Assembly: GCA_029880285.1 (NCBI GenBank)
Contig: JAOUOS010000030.1
Location: forward strand, 1-41,383
Reading direction: 5' to 3'
Source of the DNA: Spirochaetia bacterium
GTDB taxonomy: Bacteria > Spirochaetota > Leptospiria > Turneriellales > JAOUOS01
Length of the DNA: 41,383 nt
Under the pieces are notes generated by a model. The model searched no databases. It saw only the letters and a list, made by a program, of their open reading frames with translations, and was not told where the DNA came from. The position numbers and the translations under genes are program-made. Shown here piece after piece: positions 2,972 to 41,383 of the stretch (position 1 is its first letter; every line of letters begins with the position of its first letter).

Positions 2972-4408
2972 TTAATTTAAACTGCTGTAAGAAGAATAAG
3001 GTAAAATAATTTCTAAAGATTCTTTTTTATGGTCACTTGTTAGTTTAAGTGAGCCCTTAAAAACAAAAATGATTTCTTTTATTTCGTTTAAGTATAATTC
3101 CATTTCTTTTTTTTGAAGAATATGATTAATACTGGAATCTTTATTCATAAAGTTTATTAAAACCTGATTTCTTTCTGTAATAATAGAAATTTTTAATATT
3201 TTATTATTTAATAAATGAAATATGTTATTAAGAGCAATTTTAAGAATTTTAATAATTTCAGAAGCTAGAATATTTTCAATAAACAGCAAACTTGTGTTAA
3301 AAAATAAATCACATCTGTTCTTTGTATTTTTTTCATAATCAGCGGCTATATTTTCAATAAATGTTTTTAGACTAAAATTTTCAAGCTGGTTTAATTCCAG
3401 ATTTTTTGTTATTTTTCGAATGCTTTGAATGGCAGAATTTAATAAGTTTTTTGATTCAATTATATTTTCTGGATTTAAAGTATTTTCTACTTTTTGAATT
3501 TCATCGTTTAGTTTTTCAATATCAAAGTTAATTAAAGACATAATTTGATTTAAATCATCCTGAATATTAATGGCTATTTTTTTTCTTTCCTGCTGGCGCG
3601 CGGTTTGATAATTTCTTGCCATTTGTTTAAGTTCTCTTCTTCTTTGTATAAGTTCTTTTTGAGCGTTGTGACGGCGGCTAATATTTTGAATTAGTGAAGC
3701 GATTCCAATAATGTTATTTTTCTCATCAAATAAGGGCACATTGTACCATTCACATTGAATGAAGTTTTTGCTTTTTGTAATGTTTTTATCTGTGCTTCTT
3801 AATTCACATTTTTCTTTCAGTATTTTATTAAAAAATTTATTTATTAAACTTTCGTTTATATTTGAAATTTTTGACAATGCTTTTTGGTTTATCATTTCTT
3901 CTTGGGTATATTCAAAAATATTTTCAGCCGCTTTGTTCCACCGTGTTACCTCTAAATTCAAGTTCCACTCGATAATAGCCATGGGAATATTATCAACATG
4001 AAATTGAAGTTTTTGAGCATGTTCAATTAGTGCTTTTATCCCTTTTTTTTCTCTTGTTATATCGCGGCATATTTCAATTGAGCCCGCTAATTCATTATTG
4101 TTTATAATAAAGGGATAGCCTTTAATCTCCCATATATTATTATCAGATGTTATAATTTCGCCCTGTTTTTGAGAAAGATTCTCTTTTGCCTCAATAGCAG
4201 GGCAGAATAAGCAAAAGCTGTCTCTTTGAAAAAGTATCTTATAACACTTTTGACCTATTGCCGAATCACGGTTTACTTTAAAAGAATTTTGAGCGCCTTT
4301 GTTCATCCAAATAATATTCATCTTTAAATCATGGCAAATTATAGGATCAGAAATACTGTCAAGTATATGAAAATAATCTATTTTAATGTCATTTAAATGA
4401 TTATGCAT
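2972..4408 (-). CDS. PAS-domain sensor protein with a degenerate HisKA_3/HATPase-like C-terminus (probable pseudo-histidine kinase)
   Basis: The ORF is 478 aa. The N-terminal ~250 aa have two PAS-like segments ('ICHDLKMNIIWMNKGAQ', 'IPMAIIEWNLNLEVTRWNKAAENIFEYTQEEM'). The C-terminal ~220 aa follow the NarX/DesK-type (HisKA_3) layout, but the kinase motifs are altered. 'ERKKIAINIQDDLNQ' sits where 'ERxRIARELHDxxGQ' is expected, so the phospho-acceptor His is Gln. 'KIALNNIFHLL' resembles an N-box. No DxGxG (G1) or GxGL (G2) box is present. The C-terminal 'GSLKLTSDHKKESLEIILP' matches the end of an HATPase domain. Confidence 0.6.
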   Translation of the reverse strand: MHNHLNDIKIDYFHILDSISDPIICHDLKMNIIWMNKGAQNSFKVNRDSAIGQKCYKILFQRDSFCLFCPAIEAKENLSQKQGEIITSDNNIWEIKGYPFIINNNELAGSIEICRDITREKKGIKALIEHAQKLQFHVDNIPMAIIEWNLNLEVTRWNKAAENIFEYTQEEMINQKALSKISNINESLINKFFNKILKEKCELRSTDKNITKSKNFIQCEWYNVPLFDEKNNIIGIASLIQNISRRHNAQKELIQRRRELKQMARNYQTARQQERKKIAINIQDDLNQIMSLINFDIEKLNDEIQKVENTLNPENIIESKNLLNSAIQSIRKITKNLELNQLENFSLKTFIENIAADYEKNTKNRCDLFFNTSLLFIENILASEIIKILKIALNNIFHLLNNKILKISIITERNQVLINFMNKDSSINHILQKKEMELYLNEIKEIIFVFKGSLKLTSDHKKESLEIILPYSSYSSLN

Positions 4409-12984: not shown

Positions 12985-13872
12985 ATGGGTACGAGTAGAA
13001 ATACAGCAATTTACGTGGGATTAATGGTTGTTATAGGGGCCATTATTTTTATAACATCTTTGGCCATTCTTGCCAGATGGCGCGTCGCGGCCGAAGGTTT
13101 TAGCATAGATTTGCAATTTTCTTTCTTAAATAACTTATCAGAAGGAGCTTCTGTAAAAGTTTCAGGAGGTATTCCAGTAGGATACGTAAAATCGATTTAT
13201 CAAAAAGATATGCAGACATACGTGAAACTTTATTTAAATAACGATCTTAGAGACAAAATACCTAAAAGACCAGAAACACAATTTGGGATATACACAACAG
13301 GTCTAATGGGGCAAAAATTTATAAATATAACAATTCCTCCCGCGCAAGAAGGTGATGAATTTATTCAACCGGGAGACGTGTACAAAGGAATAGATCCCCC
13401 TTCTATTGATCAAATGTTGATGGTTTTTTCAAGCTGGTTTGACGGCAAAAGCGGCGGTCAGGTTCTAGCAGAAATTATGCAGGAAACTGAAAGATTTATA
13501 TCAAATTTAAACGCTATAGCCTCTGAAAACAGGCAGGATATAAGGCTTACTATAAAACAGGCAAGAGAATCTTTTAGTAATTTATCAGATCATCTTGATA
13601 TATTAATGAAAAAACTAAACATTTTATCTGAAAACTTTTCAGATATATCAACAAAAAACAAGCAGGATATTCAAATTATGCTTGAGAATATGTCTCAAAT
13701 ATCTAAAGATTTGAATTTAATTACCCAGAGAATTAATTCGGGACGCGGTTCTGTGGGTAAGTTTATTGCCGATGAAAATATTTATGAAAATACCAATGAA
13801 GCCATTGAAAATGCTAAAGAACTTTTTAAGCTTCTAAAAGAAAAACCATGGCTCATGCTTTATAAAGAATAA
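12985..13872 (+). CDS. mlaD: MlaD/MCE-domain protein with C-terminal coiled-coil extension
   Basis: The ORF is 295 aa. It has an N-terminal TM helix, then an MCE-like segment ('SVKVSGGIPVGYVKSI'), then a ~120-aa helical extension. Confidence 0.7.
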   Translation: MGTSRNTAIYVGLMVVIGAIIFITSLAILARWRVAAEGFSIDLQFSFLNNLSEGASVKVSGGIPVGYVKSIYQKDMQTYVKLYLNNDLRDKIPKRPETQFGIYTTGLMGQKFINITIPPAQEGDEFIQPGDVYKGIDPPSIDQMLMVFSSWFDGKSGGQVLAEIMQETERFISNLNAIASENRQDIRLTIKQARESFSNLSDHLDILMKKLNILSENFSDISTKNKQDIQIMLENMSQISKDLNLITQRINSGRGSVGKFIADENIYENTNEAIENAKELFKLLKEKPWLMLYKE

Positions 13873-36468: not shown

Positions 36469-36729
36469 ATGTTTTATGTATATATTTTAGAATGTAAAGA
36501 CGGAACCTATTACACAGGCGCCGCTAAAAATCTTGAAGATAGAATAAACAAGCATAAACAGGGCAAAGGTGCAAAATATACAGCGGGAAGAACTCCGTTA
36601 AAATTAGTTTATTATGAAGAGTGCGAAAATATAAGCGAAGCATACAAAAGAGAAAAAAATATTCAAAAAATGACAAGAGAAGAAAAAAAGAATTTAATTA
36701 GAAGCATTCCAACTAAAGGTAAATCATAA
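36469..36729 (+). CDS. GIY-YIG domain protein (UPF0213/YhbQ-like)
   Basis: The ORF is 86 aa. It starts 'MFYVYILECKDGTYYTGAAKNLEDRINKHKQGKGAKYT', which is a GIY-YIG N-terminus. Confidence 0.8.
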   Translation: MFYVYILECKDGTYYTGAAKNLEDRINKHKQGKGAKYTAGRTPLKLVYYEECENISEAYKREKNIQKMTREEKKNLIRSIPTKGKS

Positions 36730-36807
36730 AAATATGAATATATGAATAGACAGGATTAACAAGATTATACATGATTGATTTTATAATTATAACGAATGAA
36801 CTTTTAA

Positions 36808-36895
36808 GTCGTCGAAAAGCGTTTTTGTAAGCTGGACAAGCGAAGCTGGTCGAAGGCGGCGCGAATTAACCTCAATGGTTATGCGAAATGGCGTT
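36808..36895. repeat. GC-rich island with 14-nt tandem near-duplication (aagctggacaagcg / aagctggtcgaagg)
   Basis: Read from the sequence. It lies between the convergent GIY-YIG and DUF4236 genes. Its composition is sharply different from the AT-rich flanks. Confidence 0.5.
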
Positions 36896-38175
36896 TAAGA
36901 TAATTTCTGACCTATAACTTTATTCAATACTGTAAAGGTTTCAATTATATTTGGTGTTGACAAATAAATAGGTTTGGTTTTATTAAAAATTATTAATTCG
37001 ATTATACCATCTTCTTCCTCAAGATAATTATTTTCTAAAATACTTTCAATCTTTATAGTTGAATGACCCGTAGTGACAAGCTGTATTGTATTTGCAGTAA
37101 TAAAAAAATTACCTTCTTTGTCTAATGATAATTGTCTGAATTTATTTTTTATACCATTTTGTGTAAATGACTTTATAATTTTACTTTTAAGTATTCGAAC
37201 TTTATTTTCATAATAACATTTATCAGATTCTTTAATATTATTCATACTTGGACTAATCGATTTTAATGGTGAGGTAGCGATTTTTCTAATAGAACTATAT
37301 TGTTCAATAATGTGATAATATTTTGTCTGATCTGATTTTGGAATATCAAAAATATTTAAGCATGTTTTAAGAAAATGTTCTTCACTTTCATCGAGATATT
37401 TATCATCGATAAAAATTGATAATAAATTATTAATATATACAATATTAATAGATTCCCAAGTTTCTTTTGGTAAATTGTTTTTTATTTGACTAATTAAAGC
37501 TTTTTCAGAGTCATCAATAATCATGTCCTCAATAATATTAGGTATTAGTTTTGAGTATATTATTGAATAGATATATGATTTAAGCGATTTATCTTTTTTA
37601 GATTTATTATTGAGTTGCTCAATTAAATTTAAAAATTCATTATGTTTATTTTCTATAATTACGTTTTCCATTTTTTGAATGTATCTTTTTGCCTGATATT
37701 TCCTAATATATTTTGTGGGTAAATTGATGATAAAAATTAAAAAAAATATAAAACTCAATTCTGGAATATTACCTATTGCTGAAAAAATAAAAAAACCAAG
37801 AGAAAACCAAAAAGTAAATATATAGCGATAGGTGCTATTTAATTCAAATTTACCTAATTCTATGTTTTTCAACGTTAAATGATGATCATATTTATCTGTT
37901 GATTCAACGTTATGTTCTAAGCTTTGTTTAACTGAAAATGTGTCTACAGAATTAGAATTGAGGTTTGATGATAAACTTTCATTAAAATATAAACCATGTC
38001 TGCCACCTGCCACATAACTTTTACCACGACTGTCCATACCTAGCTTGAGACCTTTTATGCCAGCCGAAATGCCTATACCACTCTTAGAAAGATTGAATCT
38101 AACTGGACCCATTTTAAGAGATTTTCTCAAAAACTTACTCATTTTATAAAACCTTGAACATGTTGCATAAAACAT
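36895..38175 (-). CDS. DUF4236-domain membrane protein with TerB-like and PH-like C-terminal regions (hypothetical)
   Basis: The ORF is 426 aa. 'KSLKMGPVRFNLSKSGIGISAGIKGLKLG' matches the DUF4236 N-terminal signature. It has two TM helices (~aa 118-155). Two acidic repeats, 'IIEDMIIDDSEKALISQI' and 'IDDKYLDESEEHFLKTCL', are TerB-like. The C-terminal ~90 aa is a beta-rich segment. Confidence 0.5.
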   Translation of the reverse strand: MFYATCSRFYKMSKFLRKSLKMGPVRFNLSKSGIGISAGIKGLKLGMDSRGKSYVAGGRHGLYFNESLSSNLNSNSVDTFSVKQSLEHNVESTDKYDHHLTLKNIELGKFELNSTYRYIFTFWFSLGFFIFSAIGNIPELSFIFFLIFIINLPTKYIRKYQAKRYIQKMENVIIENKHNEFLNLIEQLNNKSKKDKSLKSYIYSIIYSKLIPNIIEDMIIDDSEKALISQIKNNLPKETWESINIVYINNLLSIFIDDKYLDESEEHFLKTCLNIFDIPKSDQTKYYHIIEQYSSIRKIATSPLKSISPSMNNIKESDKCYYENKVRILKSKIIKSFTQNGIKNKFRQLSLDKEGNFFITANTIQLVTTGHSTIKIESILENNYLEEEDGIIELIIFNKTKPIYLSTPNIIETFTVLNKVIGQKLS

Positions 38176-38357
38176 ATATATAGTAAAGAGAAATATGTAA
38201 AAAAAATTGTTATTTTTTAAGAATATAATTTTTTTTAAACAAAAAGTGCATAATGTATAGTAAAATTATTGACAATTAACCTAAAATTAAGAAAAGGCCT
38301 TATTGTATTAATAAATTTTAATAGTTGAAAAGGTTAAAATAAAAAAGAATTTATATT

Positions 38358-39782
38358 ATGAGAAAATTCTTATCTGATTTATTTGAAAATAATAATTCAA
38401 AAAGGAAAATATTTTTTGACATATTTATTAATATTTTAATTTTAATATCAGTCTATACTATTATACAAGAATATATTTATGAAAATGAAAATGAATTATT
38501 CATAATTGCAAATGATGTTTTTTTCTATATATTTGTTTTAGAATATTTTATCAGGTTATGGCTGTGTACAACGTTTATAAAAGATTATAAAGATGAAGGA
38601 TTGTCGTATGCAATAATTAATAAAATAAAATGGATTTTAAAACCGAATAGTATAATAGATTTACTTGCAATTTTACCGGATATACGCTATTTAAGATTAT
38701 TCAGAATATTTCGATTAATAAGAATTCTTCGTATCGTTCGATTATTTCGGTCTGTTCATGTCCAATCTGCAGTTGAAAGAGGCTTTTTAATATTGAGAAG
38801 TTTTCGAGAAACTACAATGCTATTTTTTTTACTATTTTTTTTCGTCTTTAGTGCACTAATTATAATTTCACTTTTCATTTATGCTTCTGAAACGAAAATT
38901 AATAAAGAGTTTTCAACTTTTTTGGATTCCATATTATACTCTTTTCAATTGGTAGATATAGTTGACGATTTACCAAAAACAGGTTGGGGAAAGCTCGGAA
39001 GTTCTTTATTGTTATTAGTTAATATGGTATTTTTTGGTATTTTTATTTCATTAATCACAACAAATGTCGAGGAGGTATTAGATAGGATGAAAAAAGGAAA
39101 ACTAGGAAAGGTAAATTATAAAAATCATATTATTCTCTGTGGATTTACTAAGTCAACAGAGGCAGTAATTAAAGAACTTTTATGTAATAAAAAGAAAAAA
39201 CCAAAAATTATTCTTATTAGTAGAAAACAAAATCCTGATATTACGGGAGTGATTTATATGAATGGTGATTTTAGCAAAATGGAGACATTGAAAAAAGCTA
39301 ATATATCTCAAGCAGCTATGGTTGTCGTTTTTACGGAAAAATTAGATGATGAAACTTATGAAGTCGTTGATATGAGAACGATGCTAACTATTTTTAATGT
39401 AGAGAAAGAAGTTCCAGAGGTACATACTGTAGCAGAAATTATTGAAACTGAAAATGGTGATATCATAAGAGAAAAAATTAAAGGCGATGAATTAATATTT
39501 AAAGAAACATTGGATGGTAATTTAATTGCTAGTTGCGTTAAACATCCTTATATCTCATCAATGATATATGATTTATTAGATACAAAAGGAAATTCAATTA
39601 AAGAATACAAAGCGATTGAATTATTAAATGCTAAAATAAAAACGGTTAAAGACATAAAAATGTATGCAATTGAAAATAATATTACATTCTTGGGATTTAT
39701 TGATGAATATAAAAAATCAAATATTAATCCTGACAATAATTTAATATTTTCTGGAAATGAAAGATTGATATTTATATGTTAA
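38358..39782 (+). CDS. voltage-sensor (6TM) ion channel with C-terminal RCK/TrkA-N domain and non-canonical selectivity filter
   Basis: The S4 helix reads 'RYLRLFRIFRLIRILRIVRLFR', with Arg at every third position. The pore loop is 'YSFQLVDIVDDLPKTGWGKLGSS', where K+ channels have 'TVGYGDMVPVTIGGKIVGS'. The RCK Rossmann sequence is 'HIILCGFTKSTEAVIKEL...ILIS...GDFSKMETLKKANISQAAMVVV'. Confidence 0.65.
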   Translation: MRKFLSDLFENNNSKRKIFFDIFINILILISVYTIIQEYIYENENELFIIANDVFFYIFVLEYFIRLWLCTTFIKDYKDEGLSYAIINKIKWILKPNSIIDLLAILPDIRYLRLFRIFRLIRILRIVRLFRSVHVQSAVERGFLILRSFRETTMLFFLLFFFVFSALIIISLFIYASETKINKEFSTFLDSILYSFQLVDIVDDLPKTGWGKLGSSLLLLVNMVFFGIFISLITTNVEEVLDRMKKGKLGKVNYKNHIILCGFTKSTEAVIKELLCNKKKKPKIILISRKQNPDITGVIYMNGDFSKMETLKKANISQAAMVVVFTEKLDDETYEVVDMRTMLTIFNVEKEVPEVHTVAEIIETENGDIIREKIKGDELIFKETLDGNLIASCVKHPYISSMIYDLLDTKGNSIKEYKAIELLNAKIKTVKDIKMYAIENNITFLGFIDEYKKSNINPDNNLIFSGNERLIFIC

Positions 39783-39958
39783 AATATATTTATAGAAAAT
39801 AATATAATATCTTTTTAGCAAAATATAATATTTTAGAAAACAGAAAACGCTATTTTGCACAACGGACGACATTTTACGATGAGTTTTGCGTTTCGCCTTA
39901 AAAACAACTTTACATTTTATCTATAGAAAGTAAATCATTTTTAGCATATAAAAAAGCG

Positions 39959-40033
39959 CAAAACCGCTAACGAAGGTTGCCGCAGGCATGCAACCCGAAA
40001 GGGAGTTCAGCTTAAAAGATTAGTTAGCAGATG
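39959..40033. repeat. GC-rich ~75-bp repeat copy A with internal palindrome GGTTGC-N9-GCAACC and flanking GCTAAC/GTTAGC inverted hexamers
   Basis: It is near-identical to copy B at ~40718-40794. The only difference is a 6-nt patch (ggagtt vs agcgcg) plus 2 extra A in copy B. It lies upstream of the toxin-antitoxin cassette. Confidence 0.7.
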
Positions 40034-40096
40034 AAACCGGCCTTTTTAAGATGTATTAACCATAAAAAAATTGCTTTCAATATTGAAATTTACACC

Positions 40097-40129
40097 TTGA
40101 CATCTTGTAAAATAAATATATATTATAAT
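40097..40129 (+). promoter_or_regulatory. sigma-70-like promoter candidate for the TA operon (TTGACA, A/T-rich -10)
   Basis: A TTGACA hexamer is followed ~16-17 nt later by TATATT/TATAAT, ~30 nt upstream of the AAGGAAG RBS and the antitoxin ATG. Confidence 0.35.
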
Positions 40130-40156
40130 CAAAGATGATATAATAAGGAAGAATTT

Positions 40157-40372
40157 ATGAGTGTAGCAGCACAGAAAATTATAGAAGAATTAGACGAATT
40201 ATCTACAGAAGATAAAGAATATGTGAAAGAAGTCTTTGATAAAATGCTAATTGAAGCAAGGCGCGAAGAAATCTATCAGAATATTCAATTAAGCGAACAA
40301 GAATACAAAGAAAGAAAAACAAAAAGTTTTGATAACGCAAATGACTTAATGAGTTCTCTAAATGAAGATTGA
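40157..40372 (+). CDS. type II antitoxin (small acidic helical protein, 'addiction module component'-like)
   Basis: The ORF is 71 aa. It overlaps the downstream RelE/ParE ORF by 11 nt. 'IIEELDELSTEDKEYVKEVFDKML' resembles the short antitoxins that pair with RelE/ParE toxins. Confidence 0.6.
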   Translation: MSVAAQKIIEELDELSTEDKEYVKEVFDKMLIEARREEIYQNIQLSEQEYKERKTKSFDNANDLMSSLNED

Positions 40373-40628
40373 TTATAGCAGCACCTTTAAAAAAGCATAT
40401 AAAAAAAGAACATCTAATCATCCTCAGCTAAAAAATCGTTTTAAAGAAAAAATGGCTCTATTTTATTCTAACCCATGGCACCCTGCTCTAAAAACACATA
40501 AGTTAGTGGGCAAACTAAAAAACTCTTACAGTTTTTCTGTCGATTATGATTGTAGGATTGTTTTTAAATTTATTTCAGATGACCATATTCTTTTAATTGA
40601 TATTGGCAAGCACGACGAAGTATATTAA
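40362..40628 (+). CDS. RelE/ParE-family type II toxin (mRNA interferase fold)
   Basis: The ORF is 88 aa. 'FKKAYKKRTSNHPQLKNRFKEKMALFYSNPWHPALKTHKLVGKLKNSYSFSVDYDCRIVFKFISDDHILLIDIGKHDEVY' matches the RelE/ParE consensus (...LxGxLxgxxsxRvGdYRiif...lxigHRkdvY). Confidence 0.85.
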   Translation: MKIDYSSTFKKAYKKRTSNHPQLKNRFKEKMALFYSNPWHPALKTHKLVGKLKNSYSFSVDYDCRIVFKFISDDHILLIDIGKHDEVY

Positions 40629-40691
40629 TTTTATCAAAGCCACAAATTAGAAAATAAAATATTAAAATGCACTTATACGAGGTGCTTCAGG

Positions 40692-40708
40692 CTCAGGGTC
40701 TGAGTTTT
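40692..40708 (+). terminator. weak intrinsic-terminator-like hairpin (CTCAG-GGT-CTGAG + TTTT)
   Basis: It sits ~65 nt after the toxin stop, at the 5' edge of repeat copy B. The stem is short (5 bp), so the call is tentative. Confidence 0.3.
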
Positions 40709-40717
40709 GCGGCAAGG

Positions 40718-40794
40718 CAAAAAACCGCTACCGAAGGTTGCCGCAGGCATGCAACCCGAAAGAGCGCGCAGCTTAAAAGATTAGTTAGCAGATG
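40718..40794. repeat. GC-rich ~77-bp repeat copy B (direct repeat of copy A)
   Basis: See copy A. It shares an upstream 'gagttttgcg' block with the 39881-39890 region. The two copies bracket the TA cassette in direct orientation. Confidence 0.7.
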
Positions 40795-40948
40795 TGACAG
40801 CCGCGAACAATCATAGAAACAATTATTGTATATTTTAAATAAAATGGAAAAATATTGATTATTTCTTCAAAAAAGGCGAAAAAATAGGTAATTTTACCTA
40901 TGAAATTATGAAATTATAAAATTTTAATAAAAAGTTATTGCATTTTTC

Positions 40949-40997: not shown

Positions 40998-41383
40998 ATG
41001 ACAAAAAAACTAATTTCAATGATTTTTCTTATTGGTGCGCTTTCATTTATAAATTGCGCTTCAGAAGAAGCGCCAGTAGACGAAACACCGGGAAAAACAG
41101 ACGCACAGTCTGTTACAGATGATAAAGCGGCCCTTGACTTTGCCGATTTCACATTTGGAACAGGTGACAGCGAAACTTCGGTAACGCAAAATATTGGCTT
41201 ACCGGCTGCGGGTTCAAGCGGCACAACGATCACTTGGGCGGCGGCATATACTTCAGGGGGTGCAGATGCCTCTGGCGTAATAGCTTCTGACGGTACAGTG
41301 ACAAGACCTGCCTTTGGCGCAGGCGACGCTGTTATTACGCTTACTGCGACGATAGAGAAAAACGGCGTATCAGAGACAAAAAC
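40998..41383 (+). CDS. lipoprotein, partial (runs off 3' end of window); repeat-domain surface protein-like
   Basis: An AGGAG RBS lies 8 nt upstream. The signal peptide plus lipobox reads 'MTKKLISMIFLIGALSFINC|AS'. The frame stays open to the window end and is not in the ORF track because it has no stop. 'TTITW...GVIASDGTVTRPAFGAGDAVITLTATI' resembles Ig-like surface-protein repeats. G+C is markedly higher than the rest of the window. Confidence 0.6.
   Translation, partial: MTKKLISMIFLIGALSFINCASEEAPVDETPGKTDAQSVTDDKAALDFADFTFGTGDSETSVTQNIGLPAAGSSGTTITWAAAYTSGGADASGVIASDGTVTRPAFGAGDAVITLTATIEKNGVSETK

Follow-up and report, generated by a model that had tools for sequence, protein, structure and literature searches.

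The stretch analyzed here, hereafter the window, comprises 41,383 nt of contig JAOUOS010000030.1 from an uncultured Spirochaetia bacterium of the Turneriellales (assembly GCA_029880285.1). Near its downstream end, a RelE/YafQ-type toxin–antitoxin (TA) module lies between two near-identical, GC-rich direct repeats of 81 nt. In a contig from another sample, designated L004, the right repeat runs directly into what in the window comes after the left repeat; this suggests that the copies have recombined and delimits a 761-nt unit composed of the TA operon and one repeat. The explanation that we tentatively favor, with confidence somewhat short of even, is that this 761-bp unit was inserted into a resident copy of the repeat by a single reciprocal crossover of the Campbell type, and that the flanking copies can recombine again. 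The case comprises a single locus in one uncultured lineage together with a single short contig across the junction, and is presented as a lead rather than a finding.

A repeat search of the window returned the pair listed in Table 1 as the single outstanding direct repeat. The copies are identical at 73 of 81 positions (90%), lie in direct orientation and are spaced 761 nt from start to start; their GC content is 48–51%, compared with 29% in the interior and 30% in the window. An earlier note on this DNA, made from the letters alone, had described two near-identical GC-rich direct elements around a TA module, each containing a perfect GGTTGC/GCAACC stem with a 9-nt loop and a 6-nt variable patch, and all of this is confirmed. 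The window has exactly two occurrences of the 21-nt palindrome, GGTTGCCGCAGGCATGCAACC, compared with none in 100 shuffles, and this palindrome is the sole helix found in all predicted folds. The eight mismatches leave two perfect blocks, CGAAGGTTGCCGCAGGCATGCAACCCGAAAG of 31 nt (39971–40001) and CAGCTTAAAAGATTAGTTAGCAGATG of 26 nt (40008–40033). Four of the eight fall inside the 6-nt patch, for which random placement gives a P of about 0.026 for at least four within some 6-nt window. Outer inverted hexamers, GCTAAC/GTTAGC, had been ascribed to both copies; they are complementary in the left copy, whereas the right copy reads GCTACC and the pair is broken. On the 3' side, identity between the copies breaks off sharply after GATG, and toward the 5' side it tapers away, the pattern expected of a crossover at the 3' edge.

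Upstream of each copy lies the 10-mer GAGTTTTGCG, which had correctly been recognized as an extra shared block split off on the left. A chance match of ten nucleotides in both upstream flanks has a probability of ~2e-3, roughly estimated from base composition. The gap between 10-mer and unit amounts to 66–68 AT-rich nt on the left and to 6 nt (GCAAGG) on the right, where the unit including the 10-mer measures 93 nt (40702–40794). The last 8 nt of the left 10-mer, GTTTTGCG, are perfectly complementary to CGCAAAAC at 39957–39964. Pairing between the 10-mer and the A-rich beginning of the unit is possible at both copies and would close a loop of 66 nt on the left and one of 6 nt on the right, so that the AT-rich 'insert' would occupy the loop of a potential hairpin. 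The stability of either copy, including longer versions folded as RNA or DNA on either strand, was no better than that of shuffles. One reading frame is open across both copies, and a small peptide gene was rejected because the left copy has no start codon.

The genes between the repeats form a compact two-gene module. The toxin exceeds the curated cut-offs of both Pfam PF15738 YafQ_toxin (36.5 bits against 30) and NCBIfam TIGR02385 RelE_StbE (34.0 against 27.9), which assigns it to the RelE/YafQ family of type II TA systems and agrees with the RelE-type toxin proposed from the translation. Its 71-aa upstream partner matches no curated family above its cut-off in Pfam or NCBIfam; it is designated a putative antitoxin on the basis of its position and its 11-nt overlap with the toxin gene, and the upstream partners of homologous toxins are 70–74 aa long. 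The promoter attributed to the module is likewise present as a near-consensus match inside the 761-nt unit. An imperfect inverted repeat, ATCTTG ... CAAAGAT (40102–40141), spans the -10 region of this promoter match and is a candidate operator for antitoxin autoregulation. Beyond the toxin gene, the hairpin TTCAGGCT/GGTCTGAG, followed by TTTT, resembles a terminator and overlaps the right 10-mer; it was deduced from the RNA fold and was not called by a strict terminator scan.

Table 1 Features of the repeat-flanked TA locus, in coordinates of the window
Feature	Position	Strand	Description	Basis
10-mer, left copy	39881..39890	+	GAGTTTTGCG	Sequence read, alignment
AT-rich stretch	39891..39956	+	66 nt, 21% GC, between left 10-mer and unit	Sequence read
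Left repeat copy	39953..40033	+	81 nt, GC-rich	Repeat search
Palindrome, left copy	39975..39995	+	GGTTGC-N9-GCAACC	Pattern search
Variable patch, left copy	40002..40007	+	GGAGTT	Copy alignment
761-nt unit	40034..40794	+	Leader, promoter, antitoxin, toxin, right repeat	L004 junction
Promoter match	40097..40126	+	Sigma-70-type, TTGACA-16/18 nt-TATATT/TATTAT, 11/12	Consensus match only
Putative antitoxin	40157..40372	+	71 aa, MDH5718311.1, NCBI name DUF2321 domain protein	Open reading frame, position
YafQ/RelE-family toxin	40362..40628	+	88 aa, MDH5718312.1	Pfam, NCBIfam
Terminator-like hairpin	40686..40708	+	3' of toxin gene	RNA fold
10-mer, right copy	40702..40711	+	GAGTTTTGCG	Sequence read, alignment
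Right repeat copy	40714..40794	+	81 nt, GC-rich	Repeat search
Palindrome, right copy	40736..40756	+	GGTTGC-N9-GCAACC	Pattern search
Variable patch, right copy	40763..40768	+	AGCGCG	Left coordinates plus 761

The evidence for exchange between the copies comes from L004, a contig of sample ERZ27296367 and the only further contig on which the exact toxin and antitoxin proteins were found. It differs from window positions 39694–40794 by two substitutions, at 39754 and 40412, indicating that it derives from a slightly different strain. In order, it contains the left flank, the left repeat, the TA genes and a right repeat whose patch (AGCGCG) and upstream sequence are both of the right type. Past the end of this repeat (...GATG), it continues with AAACCGGCCTTTTTAAGATGTATTAACC, 28 nt that equal window positions 40034–40061, that is, the sequence after the left repeat, and it lacks the chromosomal flank TGACAGCCGCG that follows the right repeat in the window. 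Such a join is the junction predicted by recombination of the copies 3' of the patch, and it suggests either a 761-bp circle or a tandem duplication. Because the copies share no exact match longer than 31 nt, assembly at k=141 should not by itself create it. The proposal that the cassette is mobile is thus upheld as far as its repeat-defined ends are concerned, with the L004 junction as indirect evidence of recombination at these ends, but not as regards attC-type cassette capture, which is taken up below. In a third sample, SRR7132593, the Logan contig L002 matches window positions 36800–39902 with 100% identity and breaks off at 39902, inside the AT-rich stretch and 50 nt short of the left repeat; no record of the TA proteins exists for this sample. 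This could reflect strain variation at the locus or merely low coverage.

According to the explanation that we favor, the unit at 40034–40794, consisting of the TA operon and one copy of a ~90-nt GC-rich sequence, would have entered by a single reciprocal, Campbell-type crossover with a pre-existing copy downstream of a K+ channel gene (MDH5718310), so that one copy remained at either end, like attL and attR. The crossover point would lie within or at the end of the identical 26-nt block 3' of the variable patch, CAGCTTAAAAGATTAGTTAGCAGATG. A reverse exchange between the copies would loop the unit out as a 761-bp circle, and an exchange between sister chromosomes would yield a tandem duplication of it. 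With its own promoter, the TA operon could be expressed wherever the unit lands, and it would penalize loss of the unit via post-segregational killing. The exchange might be catalyzed by a trans-acting recombinase encoded elsewhere, or might proceed through RecA or replication slippage on the identical blocks of 26–31 nt. That the event was an insertion, where the crossover lay and what enzyme acted are all inferred. The host-like composition of the interior, set against units of about 50% GC, supports a Campbell-type event.

Homologous TA operons offer a partial parallel. Close relatives of the toxin are lacking outside its own locus; the next best match is 65% identical. The 81-nt repeat, used directly as a query, is absent near the homologous toxins of L024 and L025; contigs L027–L036 were screened only for their own internal direct repeats, and showed unrelated local repeats or none. 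Three homologous operons from unrelated genomes, those on L028, L027 and L031, are also flanked by direct repeats, in each case of local sequence. On L028, whose toxin is 55% identical, the operon is flanked by a 107-nt direct repeat with 94% identity between copies (254–360 and 1373–1479), which consists of 14-nt tandem repeats and the initial 45 nt of the bAvd/23S_rRNA_IVP gene that lies downstream, so that a truncated gene start stands upstream of the TA genes. This duplication resembles what a circle carrying a homologous segment would leave behind on insertion by a single crossover, and it renders a Campbell-type origin plausible for the present locus, by analogy and not as proof. On L027, a 333-kb contig, the TA genes lie between copies of a 39-nt repeat (87% identical) accompanied by TTCATTC-type heptamer arrays (2564–2622 and 3946–4091). 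L031, from activated sludge, has a second copy of the antitoxin gene 1446 nt downstream of the first, 230 nt long and 91% identical (2269–2498 and 3715–3944). Flanking direct repeats were found neither on L025 and L034 nor on the short contig L024.

Two further features of these contigs were recorded. A third, partial 14-mer array follows the bAvd gene on L028, and the arrangement resembles an array of small genes separated by repeats. The Logan match to L031 (L032) has identical 30-nt ends (1–30 and 1447–1476) at the same 1446-nt spacing, indicating a cycle in the assembly graph.

Several observations weigh against a Campbell-type insertion. A third copy of the unit was found in none of the collections searched, and no donor site or site family is evident. 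No candidate recombinase is encoded in the readable span of 49.8 kb, that is, the window and 8.4 kb downstream of it (on contig L001). No empty site, consisting of the channel gene, a single unit and the downstream lipoprotein gene, was found: a protein-guided search retrieved no relative of the channel gene from the genome collection, and the closest orthologue retrievable (L026, 67% identity) belongs to a genome of 50% GC and has no synteny with the locus. The junction itself consists of a single 1129-bp contig that extends only 28 nt past the join, and L004 may instead represent a chimeric read, a library chimera or a strain-fixed tandem duplication. Finally, the clustering of mismatches is suggestive of functional blocks but not strong, being only marginally significant.

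In a different account, the units are a dispersed, lineage-specific intergenic repeat that brackets the TA genes by chance, with any exchange being incidental. Such a repeat might resemble repetitive extragenic palindromes (REP) and bacterial interspersed mosaic elements (BIME), miniature inverted-repeat transposable elements (MITE) or a small multicopy RNA gene. We consider this account doubtful, while still giving it appreciable weight. A mosaic of conserved blocks and variable patches, a 21-nt palindrome and a GC-rich island in an AT-rich spacer recall many bacterial repeats, and the difference between the two loops closed by the GTTTTGCG/CGCAAAAC stem suggests a structure tolerant of loop insertions. 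Homologous TA operons elsewhere, moreover, sit among local repeats of very different sequence. However, permissive BLASTN found two copies only in the 49.8 kb, adjacent to each other, and neither has the structure of a MITE: terminal inverted repeats are lacking, as the 8-mers CYGCTAAC/GTTAGCAG are internal and identity runs on beyond both sides, and the sequences bordering each copy are not duplicated, leaving no target-site duplication.

Database searches likewise failed to reveal a dispersed family. The exact 21-nt palindrome had no match in a collection holding one genome for each of 185,579 species. A degenerate pattern combining the palindrome with CGAAAG matched 17 sequences in JGI metagenomes and one in IMG/VR, all of which proved on inspection to be unrelated chance matches, and the 3' block had no match in IMG/VR. 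BLASTN with either repeat copy and its flanks gave no match in plasmids or phages. The plus-strand frame that is open across the right copy shares no words with any of 5.8 billion protein clusters. In Rfam 15, nothing in the window reached the gathering thresholds and nothing overlapping the units appeared even at E<=10 over 39780–40900; this result, along with folding no more stable than that of shuffles, speaks against the repeat account as well. The weight of these negative results is less than it might seem, since the pattern scans demand exact matches and the genome collection lacks the host lineage. In a search of 1.84 billion representatives, the minus-strand frame had a sole match (P0031), which was rejected as a spurious open reading frame over an unrelated tandem repeat, its match falling mostly outside the unit.

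It is improbable that the units act in RNA or in DNA binding rather than in recombination, either as a 3' untranslated region or insulator after the channel and toxin genes or as a palindromic operator for a dimeric protein. Each copy lies downstream of a gene in the same orientation, beginning 170 nt past the channel stop codon on the left and 85 nt past the toxin stop codon on the right, the GGTTGC-N9-GCAACC palindrome has the 6-N9-6 geometry of an operator, and GC-rich islands in AT-rich genomes are often structured RNAs. Nevertheless, the Rfam result and the lack of a thermodynamic signal on either strand are unfavorable to this view, only two sequences are available for judging covariation, and the L004 junction would be left unexplained.

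A bolder form of the recombination hypothesis holds that the ~90-nt unit is the site of an undescribed, integron-independent cassette system of Spirochaetia, in which the palindrome, the 6-nt patch and the 26-nt crossover block would be recognized by a recombinase encoded elsewhere, and circles of 0.7 kb would move promoter-bearing cassettes. We regard this as unlikely. A TA islet flanked by direct repeats is of a familiar kind, and an unmatched repeat in an uncultured lineage is unsurprising by itself.

The earlier note had likened the layout of inverted repeats and variable patch to attC sites or, alternatively, to MITE/REP-type elements. Integrons among spirochetes have been found only in the Treponema clade (PMC3607928), and for this reason the attC comparison merited a real test. 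The nearest cultured relatives of the host among named matches are Treponema, and promoter-bearing TA cassettes are a typical component of chromosomal integrons (PMC13108822). The locus also has the form of a minimal array, with two direct copies 761 nt apart and one two-gene unit between them. In the left unit, CGCTAAC ... GTTAGCA holds the AAC/GTT triplets of the core sites R'' (RYYYAAC) and R' (GTTRRRY), with two positions per 7-mer off consensus. In addition, the 3' block TCAGCTTAAAAGATTAGTTAG is spaced like the L'-R' half of the T. denticola site 'denti2', TCAGCTTGAAGTGCTTGTTAG, a likeness too weak to register in the covariance model described next, and the L004 junction is compatible with a crossover between the G and the TTAGC of GTTAGC.

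These points are outweighed by fold, covariance and geometry. Five canonical T. denticola attC sites align as one long bulged hairpin with compensatory changes, and denti1 and denti2, folded as single-stranded DNA and compared with shuffles, reach -23.4 and -24.4 kcal/mol (z of -8.6 and -8.5). The units, folded in the same way from the R''-like to the R'-like hexamer, reach only -7.2 to -8.2 kcal/mol (z of -0.83 to +0.07, both strands). Their predicted folds are branched or partial, with the outer hexamers of the right copy unpaired, and the attC-like bulged hairpins for which a folding check had been recommended did not appear, as both copies on both strands performed no better than shuffles. 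A covariance model of the five canonical sites gave no match at E<=10, with filters off, on either strand of the window and L001. The spacing is asymmetric, with 3 nt from GCTAAC to the inner stem compared with 27 nt from the stem to GTTAGC; the right copy, reading CGCTACC, has lost the AAC triplet; and no intI lies within 49.8 kb. The repeats fail as attC sites and are not filed as such, and it is very improbable that they represent integron-type sites or a cluster of attC sites lacking integron integrases (CALIN).

Three further identities were rejected. A Xer/dif-like site would have inverted repeats on the two sides of the variable patch, and the arms here are not inverted. The mismatches are not adenine-specific and no reverse transcriptase is present, excluding the template and variable repeats of a diversity-generating retroelement. 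Ends of the IS200/IS605 type are incompatible with a junction that holds one repeat and not both.

The wider setting of the locus is a chromosomal region of housekeeping genes. The window is the final 41 kb of the 266-kb metagenomic contig ena:ERZ27296366:k141_209609. Pfam scans covered all substantial open reading frames of the window, and precomputed Pfam calls were used for the 8.4 kb downstream. The genes identified include those for IleRS, a PAS sensor, SSB, MazG, MlaE/F/D, flgB/C-fliE-F-G-H-I and GcvP, together with a polyprenyl synthase, radical SAM enzymes, ThiC, LpxK and a heptosyltransferase-family protein. No integrase, transposase or resolvase was detected in this span, to which the earlier note's remark that no recombinase is nearby can thus be extended. 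The absence of mobile-element genes among the housekeeping neighbors indicates that the insert is a small islet and not part of a larger island. The window contains no tRNA or tmRNA gene that could serve as an integration target. The channel gene precedes the left repeat, and the nearest named relative of its product is from Treponema pedis (39% identity).

Additional features were noted around the locus. A stand-alone GIY-YIG nuclease-domain protein of 86 aa is encoded at 36469–36729, ~3.2 kb upstream of the left repeat. No other nuclease-like gene lies near the locus, and nothing ties this one to the repeats. The window has one other GC-rich intergenic island (36808–36890), which shows no significant similarity to the repeat unit. 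It sits between the convergent GIY-YIG and DUF4236 genes (the latter at 36895–38175, minus strand), and L002 starts at its edge. Downstream of the right repeat, a lipoprotein gene occupies 40999–41383 and continues at L001 12641–14581. It encodes 646 aa with three aBig_2 domains, an FGE-sulfatase domain and a spirochaete-type lipobox, and contains internal tandem repeats of ~318 nt, with 41095–41383 recurring at L001 13056–13344 (94%) and 13481–13638 (85.5%). These tandem repeats probably account for the 41-kb record ending at 41383. Farther downstream, the spacer upstream of thiC is 526 nt long (L001 14582–15106), and despite this length no thiamine pyrophosphate (TPP) riboswitch matched Rfam at the gathering threshold. 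Two GC-rich hairpins stand at the start of the spacer, and the second, ATCGGGGT-GCA-ACCCCGAT followed by T6, is a canonical terminator.

If the repeats are truly recombination substrates, the locus would represent a minimal mobile unit of two genes, one promoter and one site, residing in a core chromosomal region and carrying no recombinase of its own. It would then bear on how TA systems spread and persist outside integrons, plasmids and prophages, and would exemplify an integron-like cassette logic with sites invisible to attC-based tools such as IntegronFinder.

Comparison with known systems places the locus among several types of small repeat-bounded elements. REP/BIME, enterobacterial repetitive intergenic consensus (ERIC) and MITE-type repeats share with it a GC-rich, palindrome-bearing element of ~80–130 nt in intergenic DNA, whereas the present locus shows no dispersed copies and neither terminal inverted repeats nor target-site duplications, and its two direct copies bracket a gene pair. 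Integron cassettes and CALINs, as in Vibrio and Treponema, likewise consist of one or two genes between similar direct sites, of which the 3' site belongs to the cassette; here, too, the TA operon has its own promoter, the unit contains no recombinase, and the junction is compatible with a small non-replicative circle. Unlike attC sites, however, the two sites present here form no attC hairpin, are asymmetric, fail the Treponema model and in one case lack the AAC triplet, and neither an integrase nor an attI is found in the 49.8 kb.

The pdif modules of Acinetobacter plasmids are small, often comprise TA pairs and are bounded by XerC/D sites on which a host-encoded recombinase acts in trans. 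Their sites are 28 bp long, with a variable central patch of ~6 nt and recognizable XerC/XerD arms, and are inverted in orientation around the modules. The present locus is similar in being a small TA-carrying module with short sites and a variable patch of ~6 nt, but its repeats measure 81–93 nt in direct orientation, and no inverted-repeat relation holds between the two flanks of the patch. Lastly, Campbell-type islets bounded by attL and attR, for example at the 3' ends of tRNA or tmRNA genes, differ from the locus, which has no integrase, spans only 761 bp and carries a repeat that is not a tRNA, a tmRNA or a member of any Rfam family; yet they share with it direct repeats of tens of nucleotides, one sharp edge and one decaying edge, and a TA module as retained cargo.

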